Below are positions 26,086 to 64,000 of a stretch of DNA of 64,000 nt, one piece after another; position 1 is the stretch's first letter; each line of letters begins with the position of its first letter. The translations under genes were made by a program, and so were the position numbers. Source of the stretch: Ostreococcus lucimarinus (taxonomy: Eukaryota); assembly GCA_000092065.1 (NCBI GenBank), contig CP000582.1. The stretch is one strand, 5' to 3'. The notes beneath the pieces were generated by a model. The model was not told the DNA's origin, did no database searches, and was given only the letters and a program-made list of their open reading frames with translations.

Positions 26086-27958
26086 ATGACGCGACGCGTC
26101 GACGCGAACGCGCGCGCCGTCGACGCGCGCGAGCGCGAGTGCGGTGAACTCAGGGTGCGTCGGAAGCGCGAACGCGACGCGAGATGGCGCGGACGCGACG
26201 CGAACGCGAACGATGAATGAATTCGAGTGACCGTTCGACCGTTCGACCGTTCGCGCGACCGTCGACGCGTCGACGGCGCGCGACGGCGACGCGGAGGCGC
26301 GCGCGACGGCGCGAAACGGTGATGCGAAACGCGTCGAACGCGCGCGAGCGAGCGCGAGGCGCGAGGACGGGCGCGGGAGACGCGAGGGGACGCGAGCGCG
26401 GACGGGGGACTGACGGCGAGGCGAGACGCGCGCGCGACAGGGATTTTCGCACTCGTTGCTCGGGAAATTGGACGCCGCGAGACAGGCTGGGAGGTTCGGT
26501 GAGGCGGAGATCGCGTTGTTGAAGGAAAAGCTCGCGATCGTGGTGAGCGCGTTTCAGAGCGAGCGGGAGAAGAGGGAGAAGGAATTGGAGGCGCTCGGGA
26601 GCGCGGCGCGCGTGGAGCTGAGCGAGCGAGAGTTCGCGTTGTCGAGCGCGAGATTGGAGCTCGCGGAGGCGAGACGGTTGATAAAGATTTTGGAAGCGAG
26701 AGAGGATAGTACGAGAGATGATCTCGACGAGGCTTTGACGGCGAATGAGATTTTGAAGGCGCAGTTGCTGGACGAACACGAGTGCGCTTCGACGCTTCGA
26801 CGCGAGTGCGCGCGGTTGCGCGAGGCGCTGCGAGATGCGGGCGAGGCGTTGGCGTACGCGGCGGAAAGAGAAGAAGAACTCACGAATAAGCCGGCGGGAA
26901 TGGATGACGTGGAGGTGAGACTCGAGCGTGAGGCGCAAAACGCAAAGATTGCGCGCTTGGAAGAAAAGCTCGTCGAGACGAGGGACGAAAACAAATTGCT
27001 CAGACGAGACTTGGTGGAGCGCGACGGAGAAAACTCAGAGTTACATCGCGCGGTTGCCGAGCGCGATGGTGCGCAGCGGTTCCTCAAAACGCAACTCGCG
27101 GACTGGAATCAGCGTTTGTACGCTCGCGCCGAAGGAAGCGACTCCCAACTCGCCGGTACGACGACGAGCGCGAGCGAAGGTTCGGCGACTGAACTGCGAA
27201 CGAGGTTGGATCAAGTCGAGATCGAACTCGGTGCGAAGACTGGCGCGGTTATCGCGTTGGAGCGTCGCGTGAAAGATCAAGACAAGGCACTCGAACGCGC
27301 GCGTGCGGAGATCGAAAAGATGCGCGAGAAGCTCTTCGCGCGCGAGACGACGGATGTCCGCGCCACGGCACCGAAGCAGCGATCCAAGTACGTCGAGGAC
27401 GCCGAGAATACCGCGGCGCAGGTTATGGAGACGCTTCGCGCGACGCGCGACAGACATGCAGAGAAGCGTAGTCGCGACGCTCGCGCGGCACGACGCGTCG
27501 GTGGCCCCAAGAGCGCGCAGAGCCGACCGGCGACGAAGAAACGCGAGCGAGCGCCGCCGTCATCCGTGGTCATTGACGCGAACGCCCCGTACCAACCGCC
27601 GCGAGCGAATGACGACGAGGACGAGGACGACGATGGCGATGATGACAGCGAGTACGAAGAAATTGACGTGCCGATCAAGCGCACGACGAAGAAGGGAATG
27701 TCGAAGAAGAAGTCAATCGCGCCCGCCGCCGCCAAGGAAAATGCCGCGACGGACGCCGCGCCGGCGAACGACGGTCCGCGCATGCCTCTCGGCATGCTTC
27801 AGATGCCCAAACTAGGCGCAAAGAAAGACAAGGGCGCGGTCGACGATGTCGCGCAGAAGAAGCGCCGATTGAATCGTCAATCGGCGATTCCCGAAGCGTT
27901 GCCGTCTTTAATGTTCGGCGTCGCCGACGGCGATTTTCAAGTCGCCCCGGCAAAGTGA
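26086..27958 (+). CDS. Coiled-coil protein with basic C-terminal tail (function unknown), two exons
   Basis: The ORF-track start at 26456 is TTG. Proposed exon 1 is 26086..26154: MTRRVDANARAVDARERECGELR. Proposed exon 2 is 26441..27958. About 350 aa of heptad-rich Glu/Leu/Arg/Lys sequence, then a Lys-rich tail ending PEALPSLMFGVADGDFQVAPAK. Confidence 0.5.
26155..26440 (+). other. Putative spliceosomal intron (286 nt) of coiled-coil gene
   Basis: Donor CTCAGG|GTGCGT. ACTGAC at 26409..26414, 27 nt upstream of acceptor CGCGACAG|GG. Phase 0. No in-frame stop in exon 1. Confidence 0.5.
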
Positions 27959-58737: not shown

Positions 58738-59459
58738 TTACGCCGTCAAGAGACCCTTGTCCCGTCGCAACTCTTGCTTGTACTTGGACATGCGCGCCTT
58801 GCGTCGAGCGCCGGTGTTCTTGTGCAAGATCCCCCGCGCCACGGCCTTATCCACGGACTTTGTCGCTTCCGAGATCAACGTTTCCAAACCGCTAATATCC
58901 GCCTCCGTGCACGCGTCCGCCGCCATGAGTTCGCTCGCGTTGACGAAAACCTTCTTCATTCGCGTCGTGATTTCAGACTTTCGCGCCTTGTTATACAAGC
59001 GTTCCTTTTGCGACAATCGCGTGCGCGCAACCTTGTTTTGCGCCGCGCGCACGATGAAAGCCCCTCGAGCCGGCGACGCCGTCGTCGAGCCTGCGCGCGC
59101 GCGACCCCGCGTTTAGGGTTCCAGGTCAGTCACCGCCCCGTCCGCGCGCTTCTTATCTCCCCCTTCCTCCCGCGCGCGCGACGCGCGTTCGCCCGTCGCG
59201 CGCCGTCGAGCGATCGTCGAGAAACGCATCGTCCTCTTCCCGCGATCGCGCGACGCGTCGCGCCGCGCGCGCGCGCCCGCGACCCCTCATCGCCGCGCGC
59301 GCGCCTCCCACCGCGTCGCGCGCCGTCGCGCGCGCGTCGTCGCGCGTCGCGCGTCGCGCGTCGCGCGTCGCCCGGAGCGCGTCCGATTCGACGATTCGTA
59401 CCTCGAGCGAGCGCGGTCTTGGACGCGACGGCGTTGGAGAACGTGAGCGCGGCGTGCAT
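58738..59459 (-). CDS. PRPS20: Plastid ribosomal protein S20 (bS20), two exons
   Basis: Exon 2 is 59090..58738: ...VRAAQNKVARTRLSQKERLYNKARKSEITTRMKKV...AVARGILHKNTGARRKARMSKYKQEL, collinear with bacterial bS20. Exon 1 is 59459..59402: MHAALTFSNAVASKTALAR+G, a transit-peptide start. Phase-1 junction reconstructs Gly. Confidence 0.75.
59091..59401 (-). other. Intron of plastid S20 gene (311 nt)
   Basis: Donor CGAG|GTACGA. GGTGACTGACCTGG about 33 nt upstream of acceptor GCGCGCGCAG|GC. Contains (GCGCGTC)n tandem repeats at about 59338..59366. Confidence 0.65.
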
Positions 59460-59651
59460 GGCGCGTCGATGTGTGCGGCGTCGCGCGCGCGGCGACGTCG
59501 CCGCGCCGGCGCGCGCGAAAAGAGCCTTAAATATGAGATTTGATGGCGCGACGGCGGTGTCGTTCGTACGTTCGTGTGTTTATCACTGTTTACACATACA
59601 CAGATTGCGCGGTCGGTCGCGCCCGTCGGTCGCGCGCGCGCGCGCGTCCGC

Positions 59652-60368
59652 ATGGCGCCGCGCGCGCTCGCCGCGCGCGCGCGTCCGGCGCCGATTCGCG
59701 CGCGCGCTCGAAGAGAACGTCGTCGCGCTCTCGCGTCGTCGTCGAGCGCGAGCGACGAGCTGTGCGCGCGCGTGGACGAGCTGAATGCATTCGTCGGCTG
59801 CGAGACGCGCGCGGTGACGGTGCGCGAGCGCGCGCTCGGCCGCGGCGCGTTCGGCGTCGTCCTGCGCGCGTCTCGCGACGGCGGCGTCGGCGCGCTCGAC
59901 GCGCTGGTGACGCGGCGGAGCGAGACGAAGGACGTGTGGCCGGGCGGGACGGACGCGGCGACGAGCGGCGTGGTGCGCGCGACGCGAGGGCGCGACGGCG
60001 AGGCGGCGGCGGCGGAGACGTACGAGGAAACGATGCGACGGGAGCTGGAGGAAGAGCTCGGGAGCGATGCGGCGAGAGGCGCGAGCGTGCGGGAGTTGTT
60101 CACGTTTCCGTACGAGGACGCGTACATGCGAGTGTTCGGCGCGTGCTTTGAAATCGTGCTCAGGGACGACGCCGAAATCGAATTCGCGGACGGCGAAGTG
60201 GCGGCGGCGAGATTCGTGAGTCTGGATGAGTTGGCGAGGAGCCTGAGAGAGGGGCGGGAGAATTTCACGCCGATCGGGAAGTACGTGCTGGAGTCGTACT
60301 TGGCCTTCGTCGAGACGGGCGCGCGGCCGCCCTCGGCGTGGGCCGAGCGGCGCGTCGAACCTTCGTGA
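59652..60368 (+). CDS. Nudix hydrolase
   Basis: ATG at 59652. Nudix box with insertion, ending in the REx2EE core: PGGTDAATSGVVRATRGRDGEAAAAETYEETMRRELEEELG. Transit-like N-terminus. Confidence 0.65.
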   Translation: MAPRALAARARPAPIRARARRERRRALASSSSASDELCARVDELNAFVGCETRAVTVRERALGRGAFGVVLRASRDGGVGALDALVTRRSETKDVWPGGTDAATSGVVRATRGRDGEAAAAETYEETMRRELEEELGSDAARGASVRELFTFPYEDAYMRVFGACFEIVLRDDAEIEFADGEVAAARFVSLDELARSLREGRENFTPIGKYVLESYLAFVETGARPPSAWAERRVEPS

Positions 60369-60437
60369 GAGACGAGTGCTTTGCATTTAAAAATAATCGC
60401 GCTAGTGTAGAGTGTAGTATAATTCGTTTGGATGTAG
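60369..60437. terminator. 69 bp AT-rich spacer between convergent stops (Nudix + / PTGES2-like -)
   Basis: GCATTTAAAAATAATCGCGCTAGTGTAGAGTGTAGTATAATTCGTTTGGATG. Confidence 0.45.
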
Positions 60438-61472
60438 TCAGTTCTCTAAGCCGTCCGTGCGGGTGGCCGGTCCCACGGCTTTTTCCATGCGCTCGTACCA
60501 GGGGCGGATCGAAGTGTTCGCCATGACGTCCGCGAACGTCTCAAACGTCTTCACGGCGCGCAAGACACCGAACACGCACAAATCTGCGTTATTCGGCGCA
60601 TCGCCGCCGCAGAATTTACGAGAGCCGACCGCTTCGTCGACGAACTTGTCGCACTCGGCGTATAAATCGGCGCGCTCGTCCTCGATTCCGTGTCGCTTCT
60701 TCAGCACGCGATGGGCGATGACGTACATGGACGCCGCCCCCACCCATCTCGCGCTCTCGCGCTCAAAGTACCCAAAATTCCCTCTCTTTGTGATGTAATC
60801 GAAAGATTTCACCGCTTCCGCCCACGTGCGGTAGATGTTCGGCGTCAAAACGTGCACGAAGCGTTCGTCGACCCACTTCGTCCACGTCGCCTCGCGTTCG
60901 AGGTACGCCTTCGTCTTCTTCGCCCCGAACCACGCCCCCGCGTTCGCGCTCGACCCGCTCGCGTCGAACCGCTTCGTGAGCTCGGCGATGATCGCGCTCG
61001 AATCGTTCAACTTTTCGTCCCCCACGGTGACGATCGGGACCTTTTTCCATCCATCCTCGACCCATCCCAGTTCGCCCTTCGTCATCGGGTTCACCTCCAC
61101 GACGTCGTACGGCGTCCCGTGATAATCCAAAAACGCCTTCACCTTGTTACAGAACGGGCACACGTCGTACTGATACAGCGTCACGCGCGCGCCTCCGAGC
61201 GCCGCGTCCGCCGGGCTCGTCCTCGGCGCCTCCGCGCTCGCCTCGCGTCCCGCCGTCGTCGCCGCGAGCGCCGCCGCCGCCGCCGCCGCCGCCGTCGCCG
61301 TCGCCGCCGTCCCCGCGCGCGTCCTCGTCGACGCGCGCGCCGTCGTCGCCGCCGTCGACGCGCGATGCGTCATCGCGCGCGTCGTCGTCGCGCGCATCGG
61401 CGTCGCGCGCGTCACCGCGTCGCGCATCAGCGACATCGCCCGTCGACGCGCCGACGCCGTCGTCGTCATCAT
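60438..61472 (-). CDS. Prostaglandin-E synthase 2-like glutaredoxin/GST-fold protein
   Basis: ATG at 61472. After an Ala/Thr-rich presequence: VTLYQYDVCPFCNKVKAFLDYHGTPYDVVEVNP...KVPIVTVGDEKLNDSSAIIAEL. CPFC thioredoxin-fold motif and order match PTGES2. A GST-C-like helical domain follows. Confidence 0.7.
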   Translation of the reverse strand: MMTTTASARRRAMSLMRDAVTRATPMRATTTRAMTHRASTAATTARASTRTRAGTAATATAAAAAAAALAATTAGREASAEAPRTSPADAALGGARVTLYQYDVCPFCNKVKAFLDYHGTPYDVVEVNPMTKGELGWVEDGWKKVPIVTVGDEKLNDSSAIIAELTKRFDASGSSANAGAWFGAKKTKAYLEREATWTKWVDERFVHVLTPNIYRTWAEAVKSFDYITKRGNFGYFERESARWVGAASMYVIAHRVLKKRHGIEDERADLYAECDKFVDEAVGSRKFCGGDAPNNADLCVFGVLRAVKTFETFADVMANTSIRPWYERMEKAVGPATRTDGLEN

Positions 61473-61615
61473 TCCGAATCGATCGTCCGCGCGTTCGCGC
61501 GCGCGTCGGCGATGCCTCGGCGCGAGACCGCGGCGTCGACGATGCCCTCGCGCGCCGTCGTCGAGCCCGCGCGCGCGTCGTCGTCGCGTCGCGAAGTCTC
61601 GTCGACGCGCCGTCG

Positions 61616-62770
61616 ATGCGCGCGCGACGTCACGTCGCGACGCGCGACGACGACGGCGCGCGACGTCGCGCGCGCCGCGCGAGCGGGATGTCGAGCGACG
61701 ACGCGCCGACGTTCGACGCGCTCGAGACGCGCCGCGCGTGCCGCGCGCTGCTGCCGACGCTCGATTTAGAGCGCGCGACCGAACGCTCGGTGCGCGAGGC
61801 CGTGCGCGACGCCCTGCGCGCGGCGCGCGGCGACGACGGGCGAGACGTCGATCGAATCGTCGTGCAAAACGAGATCGACGCGTTCCTGGGGCGCGCGGAC
61901 GCGGCGGTGGCGGCGAACGAGGACGGCGAGCGCGGGGCGACGACGACGGCGACGACGAAGCGCGAACGCGTCGACGACGAGGGGTCGCCGACGACCGGAG
62001 GGAATAAGAGGGCGAGCGCGACGGCGGAAGAGAGCGCGCTGGATGAAACGCGAGTGTTGGCGGCGCTGGAGGCGATCGGAGAGGACGGGACGGAGGCGAA
62101 GGCGTTGGCGAGCTTTTTGAAGCGCGACAAGACGGCGGTGAACAAGGCGCTGTACGCGATGGCGGCGCGCGGATCGGCGAGGAGAGAAGACGGCGAGGGC
62201 GGGGCGCCGAGGTGGTTCGTGGCGAACGCGAGGGTCGGTGCGAGCGAGGCGGCGACGACGCAGAGCGCGCGGCCGGCGAGCTCGACGGCGGACGCGGCGA
62301 CGACGGACGCGGCGACGAGCGCGGGCGGCGACGACGCGGTGGAGAACGAAGTCGTGGCGCTGTCGAAGACGAAGCGCGTGACGGTGCGAAAGTGGAAGGA
62401 AACGACGCTCGTTGACATTCGCGAGTACTATCAAGCCGGTGGCGAGGGACCGTACAAGCCGGGGAAGAAAGGGATTTCGTTGTCTTCGGCGCAGTGGCGG
62501 GTGCTCGACGCGAACATCGATAAAGTGGCGAGCGCCATCGAGGCGTGCGAGGCGTCGAGCCAAGAGCAGCTGGTGTGCGAGATGTCGAACACGCGACGGT
62601 GCACGGTGAGCAAGTACAAAGGGAAAGTTTTGGTCAACATTCGCGAGTACTACGAAAAAGATGGCGAGATGCGACCGGGAATGAAAGGAGCGTCTCTCGC
62701 GGTCGAAGCAGCGCGACGTCTCGTCGCGCACGCGTCGCAAATTTCTGCGCGCGTGGCTAGCCTCGAGTAG
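61616..62770 (+). CDS. Transcriptional coactivator PC4/Sub1 family (KELP-like: DEK-C domain + two PC4 ssDNA-binding repeats)
   Basis: ATG at 61616 (alternative ATG at 61688). DEK-C-like: PTFDALETRRACRALLPTLDLERATERSVREAVRDAL. PC4 repeats: VALSKTKRVTVRKWKETTLVDIREYYQAGGEGPYKPGKKGISLSSAQW and CEMSNTRRCTVSKYKGKVLVNIREYYEKDGEMRPGMKGASLAVE. Confidence 0.7.
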   Translation: MRARRHVATRDDDGARRRARRASGMSSDDAPTFDALETRRACRALLPTLDLERATERSVREAVRDALRAARGDDGRDVDRIVVQNEIDAFLGRADAAVAANEDGERGATTTATTKRERVDDEGSPTTGGNKRASATAEESALDETRVLAALEAIGEDGTEAKALASFLKRDKTAVNKALYAMAARGSARREDGEGGAPRWFVANARVGASEAATTQSARPASSTADAATTDAATSAGGDDAVENEVVALSKTKRVTVRKWKETTLVDIREYYQAGGEGPYKPGKKGISLSSAQWRVLDANIDKVASAIEACEASSQEQLVCEMSNTRRCTVSKYKGKVLVNIREYYEKDGEMRPGMKGASLAVEAARRLVAHASQISARVASLE

Positions 62771-62844: not shown

Positions 62845-64000
62845 TCACTCCTCGAACGGTTGTTCGAGTAACTCTTTTCGAATCCACACCGCGTAATCGT
62901 CGCCGTGCGTTGCGAGCTCGAACTCTGCGATTTGAGCGAGTATTTCACCCGGAACGTCGTATCTCGGCCCTAGCTTGACGATGATTTTGTCATCGATGAC
63001 CGCGACGTATAAATCGCTCTCGGCGATTTTGATGTCAACTCTGCTCTCGCAGCACACGTTGGCGAGCTTACGGCAGCTCAACAAAGCTCGAATTTCTGAT
63101 GTTAGCGATTAGGACCAACCCAAGTTTTCGTCGCAGCACCAAATGTGCGGGCCAAACACGCAGGGAATGCCGGGATGCAGAAGCGTGTACGCGTAACCCA
63201 AACCGAGACGATCGAGTGGAAACGGCCAGTGATTCTGCGGGTATCCGGTATCGTGGTTGTCGAGAAATGTCACAGCACTTTGCGGTACCCAGCCGGCAAG
63301 CCCAGGCATGCCGCCTTGCTGGTCTCGTAGCCGCCAAAACTCTACTCGCTTGACTGCTTCTTGTAGAATTCCCTTGGTCACGAAGTCGAACAACGCCGCG
63401 CATTCGTCTGCGGCGTTCAACCAATCCACGAGCACGCGTCTCGGCTTGTCTTGATTGTACTCGAGAAAGCTTCCCGACCACGTCATCCCGACCCAGTTCT
63501 CGCCGACGCAGAATTGCTCAAATCCAACCGTTTTCTCCACATACTCTCTCACGAAATTCGGAGCGTAGCCTTGGACGAAATCGAACCTCCATCCGCTGAA
63601 ACCGATGTCATCTTTCAACCAGTTCAACCACTCGATGATCGCTTCGCGAATCTCGGCGTTTGTGTGGTCGAGATCAGGGGCGATTTCGATCGAGTCGCCA
63701 CTATCGTTGGCTCCTTGACCTTCGCGAAAAAATGGATCGTCGCCGACGATGGCGTAAGCTCCCCAATTTATTCGTCTCCCGCTCGGCGTTACTTCGTCCG
63801 CAAACGAGATGAAGCGGCCATCCGAAGCGTACTCAGCGCAACGATGGTTGATGACGATGTCGCACACGGCTACTATTCCGGCTTTTTTCAGAGCCTGTAC
63901 CAACGATTTAAGCTCCGCTTCATCGCCGTACTCGCTACCGTCCAAGTTGTAAATTTCCGATGGCATGTAACCGTGCTCGTCTACCGATAACGACGGTGGA
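62845..64000 (-). CDS. AMY: Alpha-amylase (GH13, plant AMY-type), 5' end beyond window; catalytic core and C-domain separated by one in-frame TAA
   Basis: 63966..63109: GYMPSEIYNLDGSEYG, IVAVCDIVINHRC, GWRFDFVQGY, FCVGENW, FLDNHDTG, HPGIPCVF. The coding sequence continues upstream to the window edge as ...PPSLSVDEHGYMP. TAA at 63109..63111. Then same-frame ORF 63084..62845 encodes the AMY C-domain: ...SRVDIKIAESDLYVAVIDDKIIVKLGPRYDV...HGDDYAVWIRK. Confidence 0.7.

Follow-up and report, generated by a model that had tools for sequence, protein, structure and literature searches.

Close to the end of a 64,000-nucleotide stretch of DNA from Ostreococcus lucimarinus (contig CP000582.1 of assembly GCA_000092065.1), here called the window, lies part of an alpha-amylase gene whose catalytic core and C-terminal beta-domain stand in the same reading frame but are separated by a single TAA. 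The original prediction for this locus allowed several readings. The gene might be a recent nonsense-truncated allele or pseudogene, the TAA might be a sequencing error, it might be read through or recoded, or it might be removed together with a 24-nt GT...AG intron. The question is which of these readings holds for the sequenced strain, CCE9901, and what is left of the enzyme.

The interrupted reading frame

By direct translation, the amylase frame opens in the window at 63999 on the minus strand and reads ...HPGIPCVFGPHIWCCDENLGWS up to the TAA at 63111..63109. Behind the TAA, the unchanged frame continues as SLTSEIRALLSCRKLANVCCESRVDIKIAESDLYVAVIDDKIIVKLGPRYDV...HGDDYAVWIRKELLEQPFEE to a TGA at 62847..62845 (minus strand). 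This post-stop segment consists of 88 codons (SLTSEIRALL...HGDDYAVWIRKELLEQPFEE) with no additional stop and no frameshift, and the domain C peptides encoded in it include IIVKLGPR and YDVPGEILAQIAEFELATHGDDYAVWIR. The predicted ORF of 63109..63966 on the minus strand, closing at the TAA, could be confirmed and has 285 aa; the 5' end of the gene lies outside the window. The complete truncated product has 499 aa (protein P0132) and ends with ...ENLGWS; with Gln at codon 500, the product would have 587 aa.

The part of the protein before the stop matches the Pfam family PF00128 (E=2.8e-12). The part behind the stop matches PF07821 (Alpha-amyl_C2) with E=1.6e-21 and 76.8 bits at a cut-off of 27, in agreement with the earlier claim that a plant-type domain C follows directly after the TAA in the same frame. 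Both profiles of a plant-type GH13 alpha-amylase are thus present, and the match to barley AMY2 (1amy) has an E-value of 7.8e-98. The catalytic Asp/Glu/Asp triad, equivalent to D179/E204/D289 of barley, is kept; its residues D343/E370/D453 are invariant in an alignment of 22 sequences (A1). The presence of barrel and domain C in one frame, split by a single TAA, is confirmed at a match level far above chance. In this strain the two parts are not joined in one polypeptide, whereas they are in all environmental and orthologous sequences. The amylase gene is flanked by a DUF547 gene on one side and a PC4-domain gene on the other (order DUF547 - amylase - PC4), and its features are compiled in Table 1.

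Table 1. Features of the alpha-amylase gene in the window; env, environmental contigs
Feature	Position	Strand	Evidence or remark
Catalytic (beta/alpha)8-barrel part, plant-type GH13 alpha-amylase	63112..64000	-	PF00128, 1amy match
Catalytic Asp	63582..63580	-	Barley alignment, 22-sequence alignment
Catalytic Glu	63501..63499	-	Barley alignment, 22-sequence alignment
Catalytic Asp (second)	63252..63250	-	Barley alignment, 22-sequence alignment
Premature stop TAA, codon 500 of the full-length protein; ancestor CAA (Gln), C-to-T at 63111	63109..63111	-	
24-nt candidate mini-intron GTTGGTCCTAATCGCTAACATCAG; codes for loop G-W-S-Q-S-L-T-S between strand beta8 and helix alpha8	63096..63119	-	
Helix alpha8 codons LTSEIRALLSCRKL, 3' of the premature stop	63064..63105	-	AlphaFold2 helix 502-515; aligns with barley AMY2 GLKEEIDRLVSVRTRH
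Domain C beta-sandwich and tail codons, frame open	62848..63063	-	PF07821 over approximately 63060..62884; five modelled strands
Natural (ancestral) stop TGA	62845..62847	-	Full-length environmental alleles stop at the identical position
Private substitution after the stop	63000	-	env TTC (Phe), strain GTC (Val)
Private substitution after the stop	62985	-	env CTC (Leu), strain ATC (Ile); Ile also in environmental protein P0124
Private substitution before the stop	63872	-	env Ala, strain Val
Private substitution before the stop, synonymous	63961	-	

The codon in wild populations and in relatives

A protein search assigned the amylase to the P0001 cluster, which comprises 176 nearly identical environmental sequences, and gave more distant relatives at 62-73% identity, the range in which the amylases of sister lineages resemble that of CCE9901. 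A pattern search of JGI metagenomes, in which the first stop position was left as N, returned nine contigs, and all nine have C at this position, resulting in CAA (Gln). CAA is also present in an ENA contig (L001), which has 10 differences from the window in 2,390 bases. Altogether, the environmental contigs of O. lucimarinus (L001, L005-L013) have CAA in 10 of 10 cases. They are about 99.0-99.6% identical to the window and differ from it at five to six of the 1,155 compared bases within the gene (about 99.5% identity); the truncated form is absent from these ten contigs. Fourteen further members of the P0001 cluster were read. Thirteen of them span the site, with Gln in 12 cases and Glu in one, and the fourteenth is the truncated protein P0132 itself.

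Two more distant loci with the same gene order (L014 and L015) have AAC (Asn) and AAA (Lys) in place of the TAA, so that the population and the outgroups agree in having a sense codon. Wild O. lucimarinus and the sister Ostreococcus loci (P0001 cluster; P0003, P0007) share the order DUF547 - amylase - PC4 with CCE9901, but their alleles are uninterrupted. The comparison of orthologs at 63109..63111, which had been proposed as a means of deciding the matter, therefore gave a sense codon throughout (Gln, Glu, Asn or Lys) and points to a strain-specific change. In O. tauri, the ortholog is probably Ot02g05490, judging from its chromosome-2 gene name.

Since all environmental contigs have CAA, the TAA is the derived state and goes back to one C-to-T nonsense substitution that is confined to this lineage. 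In our estimation, there is a probability of roughly 85% that the locus represents a loss-of-function allele of recent origin, or an incipient pseudogene, which is restricted to the reference strain, and neither an intron, nor a recoding site, nor an assembly error. The possibility of a recent nonsense-truncated allele, raised in the original prediction, is thereby supported from three sides: the TAA recurs in three assemblies described below, CAA is the codon of the environmental population, and the 88 downstream codons are intact.

Private substitutions and age of the interruption

When the strain is compared to all environmental contigs over 1,155 nt, five sites are private to it, namely one synonymous, three non-synonymous and one nonsense change. 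The resulting ratio of 1 synonymous to 4 non-synonymous changes (including the nonsense change) does not differ significantly from the 11:9 in the neighbouring genes (Fisher p=0.32), in a comparison that had no power. Two spurious antisense ORFs were left out of the neighbouring-gene count. The lack of further stops and frameshifts indicates that the inactivation is recent.

The region 59130-61769 contains long antisense ORFs, for instance 59153..60268 (minus strand, 371 aa) and 60690..61769 (plus strand, 359 aa). These are Arg/Ala-rich and are artefacts of the high GC content; the likely real genes beneath them are a Nudix-like ORF (59574..60368, plus strand) and a GST/PGES2-like ORF (60438..61472, minus strand). 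Outside the window, the inositol-3-phosphate synthase gene ends with TAG in CCE9901 (L002:4551-4553) and with TAA in four of the four environmental contigs covering this position. With eight synonymous and four non-synonymous private differences, this gene is the densest strain-specific cluster in the 18 kb compared.

Consequences for the protein

The Gln allele (P0001) was modelled with AlphaFold2, with a mean pLDDT of 76.6 and values above 85 over the greater part of the catalytic core and of domain C. In the model, strand beta8 (481-485) is followed by a loop of lower pLDDT (491-501) and by helix alpha8 (502-515), and domain C is formed by five beta-strands between residues 524 and 577. The stop at residue 500 falls into the loop between beta8 and alpha8, directly before the helix. 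According to this model, the product of CCE9901 would be devoid of alpha8 and of the entire domain C, and judging from the fold, it is probably unstable or inactive.

The protein resembles barley AMY2 (1amy) and AMY1 (1ht6) in its domain order, i.e. a barrel with domain B followed by Alpha-amyl_C2, and in the equivalents of D179/E204/D289. Unlike the barley enzymes, the Ostreococcus amylase has an N-terminal extension of about 200 residues with low predicted order and an 8-residue insertion in the beta8-alpha8 loop, which is common to the prasinophyte relatives and inside of which the stop of the strain is located. The N-terminal extension lies beyond the window end and is complete in contig L002, which is identical to the window where the two overlap; it has an Arg/Ala-rich, transit-peptide-like start and is acidic thereafter. 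In P0001, its residues 1-49 and 61-127 have pLDDT values below 50, and most of the amino-acid polymorphism among the environmental sequences falls into the extension.

Some cysteines near the truncation site are clade-specific. These belong to 'HIWC(C)' before the loop (63130-63145) and to an invariant 'CCES' after alpha8 (63040-63055), both on the minus strand. In the alignment of relatives, the land-plant and chlorophyte enzymes have no cysteines at these positions. These cysteines of the Ostreococcus or Mamiellales type may represent a disulfide or redox feature.

It is conceivable that the 499-residue protein is functional itself, as an active or regulatory amylase devoid of domain C, and that the allele is no loss of function at all. 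The protein retains the triad, an intact N-terminal extension and seven and a half of its eight beta/alpha units, which would be in line with such a function. However, helix alpha8 is lost along with domain C, domain C is present in every homolog in which PF07821 was found, and none of the environmental contigs has the truncated form. In GH13 enzymes, domain C lies against the barrel, and their stability depends on this domain. We regard a functional truncated enzyme as improbable.

Decoding of the TAA

Near-cognate decoding of UAA can insert Gln, so that a basal readthrough of this kind, restoring the wild-type sequence, is possible in CCE9901. Whether by such readthrough, which would keep the allele partly functional, or by an own function of an amylase without domain C and alpha8, the reference strain might be a natural hypomorph. 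This has a small likelihood only. If true, the strain would be of use for the study of starch turnover in the smallest free-living eukaryotes.

Programmed readthrough, recoding or a variant genetic code with TAA for Gln, each of which would yield the full-length enzyme, is very improbable. Such a mechanism would fit the frame of 88 open codons behind the stop, which encodes a well-conserved domain, and also the ancestral residue Gln. What speaks against a variant code is the use of TAA as a terminator. Of the other ORFs in the window with a length of 200 aa or more, seven are closed by TAA, three of these sharing the TAA-T context, and the stop codon of the inositol-phosphate synthase gene is TAG in the strain but TAA in the environmental contigs, the two codons being interchangeable there. 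Readthrough is made unlikely by the absence of the stop from every relative, since no readthrough element could have been selected under these circumstances. We know of no leaky motif (e.g. UAG-CAR-YYA or UGA-CUA) that corresponds to the context UAA-UCG-CUA. The 122 nt from the stop onwards fold no better than shuffled sequences (z=+0.74), a tRNA scan of the window gave no genes and hence no suppressor tRNA there, and a scan of the window and of contig L002 against Rfam gave no matches. In summary, the stop is not conserved, and neither a leaky context nor a downstream structure was found, which leaves the proposal of readthrough or recoding unsupported.

Presence of the TAA in the strain

An error in the reference sequence or its assembly, with C as the true base and CAA (Gln) in an intact gene, is a further reading for which we see very little chance. 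One wrong base would suffice, and all environmental contigs of the species have CAA. The truncated protein P0132, a member of the P0001 cluster that carries the window-specific Val, speaks against it. P0132 originates from three contigs (L002, L003 and L004) in the Logan assemblies of SRR1179203, SRR1179204 and SRR23274481, that is, from separate runs in two accession series about nine years apart. The three contigs extend past the window end and are 100% identical to the window across 1.3-2.7 kb, including the T at 63111 and the four other private substitutions of the window in the amylase gene. Moreover, the inositol-3-phosphate synthase encoded by L002 matches XP_001416131.1 of O. lucimarinus CCE9901 exactly. 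The same genotype is thus found in separate sequence data of three runs, and because the TAA recurs in assemblies that are base-identical to the window, the suspected sequencing error is unlikely to be its cause.

L003 is identical to L002 across 8,929 nt except for one base at the contig end. Outside the window, L002 contains a 115-nt segment (L002:3124-3238, plus strand) with the canonical O. lucimarinus intron signals GTGAGT...GACTGAC...GCAG, situated between two called ORFs; its deletion results in a single 327-aa ORF of the DUF179 type. L003 stops short of this segment. Since L002 keeps the intron-like segment, it looks like genomic DNA.

The strain has been kept in culture for about two decades. 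If the three Logan runs all derive from one culture line, they place the mutation in that line and not in nature. The data are compatible with an origin of the allele in nature as well as in culture.

The 24-nt segment around the TAA

On the evidence of the sequences compared, we reject the idea that a spliceosomal mini-intron (63119..63096) is spliced out and thereby deletes the TAA, giving a full-length enzyme with barley-like spacing; it has very little chance of being correct. The segment does begin with GT and end with AG, its length is a multiple of three, it contains a CTAAC motif, and its deletion yields the barley spacing. However, its eight codons are coding in all close relatives, with the pattern [GC]-[WRP]-x-x-[ST]-L. 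The in-frame versions found there are GWSQSLTS, GWSESLPK, CRSNTLKG, CPSNTLKG and CWPKSLPG; two other relatives possess a 10-residue version of the loop and Micromonas-like sequences a longer one. In the alignment of relatives, the loop segment is absent from the chlorophyte and land-plant enzymes. At the corresponding positions, the syntenic ortholog L014 possesses a GT (within TGT) but lacks the AG, and in L015 both are missing.

The splicing signals do not fit either. EST-confirmed introns of O. lucimarinus have a median length of 111 nt, confirmed introns of chromosome 2 favour GTRNGT at the 5' site, and introns outside the intron-dense part of chromosome 2 start with GTGCGTG, possess an ACTGAC branch point in 87% of the cases and have a branch-to-AG distance of 20-35 nt (PMC2483917). 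In contrast, the segment has only 24 nt, and its 5' site GTTGGTC, with T at +3, agrees with neither GTGCGTG nor GTRNGT. Its sole branch-like motif is GCTAAC, the A of which precedes the AG by about 6 nt and follows the 5' site at a distance of only about 17 nt. The segment therefore deviates from O. lucimarinus introns in its 5' site, in its branch point and length, and in being coding sequence without conserved splice sites. A weaker argument against splicing is that the exact spliced protein of 579 aa does not occur in a collection of 15 billion proteins; the full-length Gln version with the private residues of the strain likewise has no exact match there.

The agreement with barley has another explanation. 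Between HPG.PC and helix alpha8, the protein has eight residues more than barley AMY2 (HMMER gaps of 6 and 2), and a Trp inside the supposed intron is aligned by HMMER with the Trp of 'DWG' in barley. The eight-residue excess pointed out in the original prediction is thus real, but an intron is not its cause. Since it is a coding loop insertion found across the clade, the deletion gives exactly the spacing of barley by coincidence. With codons that are coding in relatives, splice sites that are not conserved, and misfitting signals and length, the predicted GT...AG intron is contradicted.

Ultra-short spliceosomal introns exist in the Bigelowiella natans nucleomorph (about 19 nt) and in Paramecium (about 25 nt), each of which has thousands of them and an adapted splicing. 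The 24-nt segment resembles these only in length and in its GT...AG ends. Unlike these systems, O. lucimarinus has introns with a median of 111 nt and strict signals (PMC2483917), and the segment is coding in its relatives.

The window was also scanned with a regular expression modelled on the published intron consensus (GTG[CA]GT...ACTGAC...AG). The scan gave seven matches, two of which (25865 and 26155) share the 3' end 26440. One match of 178 nt (60579..60402, minus strand; GTGCGTG...ACTGAC...AG) was discarded. It sits inside an uninterrupted ORF of 344 aa and is a chance match, as its ACTGAC overlaps the stop codon of this ORF. Frame checks on the remaining matches are suggestive only, and the intron signals used above were therefore taken from the literature.

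One of the matches is a candidate canonical intron of 286 nt (26155-26440, plus strand; GTGCGT...GGACTGACG...ACAG), which follows a first exon of 23 codons. The gene concerned encodes a coiled-coil, Glu/Arg-rich protein of more than 500 aa without a Pfam match. The exact 500-aa product of ORF 26456..27958 (plus strand) is present in 404 blocks of a public collection, exclusively in environmental contigs, which shows the abundance of O. lucimarinus in metagenomes.

Origin and meaning of the allele

Taking these points together, the history of the locus would be a simple one. The gene is one of the plant-type (GH13) alpha-amylases of O. lucimarinus CCE9901, in which one C-to-T transition in the lineage of the strain changed codon 500 from CAA (Gln) to TAA. 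This codon sits in a variable surface loop between beta8 and alpha8. Translation would end with ...ENLGWS and give a 499-residue product with the triad kept but without the last barrel helix and the C-terminal beta-domain. Such a protein would be expected to fold badly and to have little or no activity. As the event is recent, the 88 downstream codons have stayed intact.

Other alpha-amylase paralogs probably cover the function. Four alpha-amylase genes are known from O. tauri, including one on chromosome 2 (PMC3056741). With this number of genes, a loss is probably tolerated and redundancy is plausible. With its one-base premature stop, otherwise intact ORF, ancestral sense codon and paralogs, the locus resembles other strain-private nonsense alleles and young unitary pseudogenes, and nothing about it is unusual in comparison to these. 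The event is ordinary and does not imply new biology.

It has consequences for the use of the reference genome nevertheless. In gene catalogues, metabolic models and counts of starch genes that are derived from CCE9901, the locus should be entered as a probable null. It should be counted neither as two genes nor as a gene with an exotic intron, and annotation pipelines should not introduce a 24-nt intron in order to rescue the frame. The wild populations all have CAA here, an example of how they can deviate from a cultured reference.
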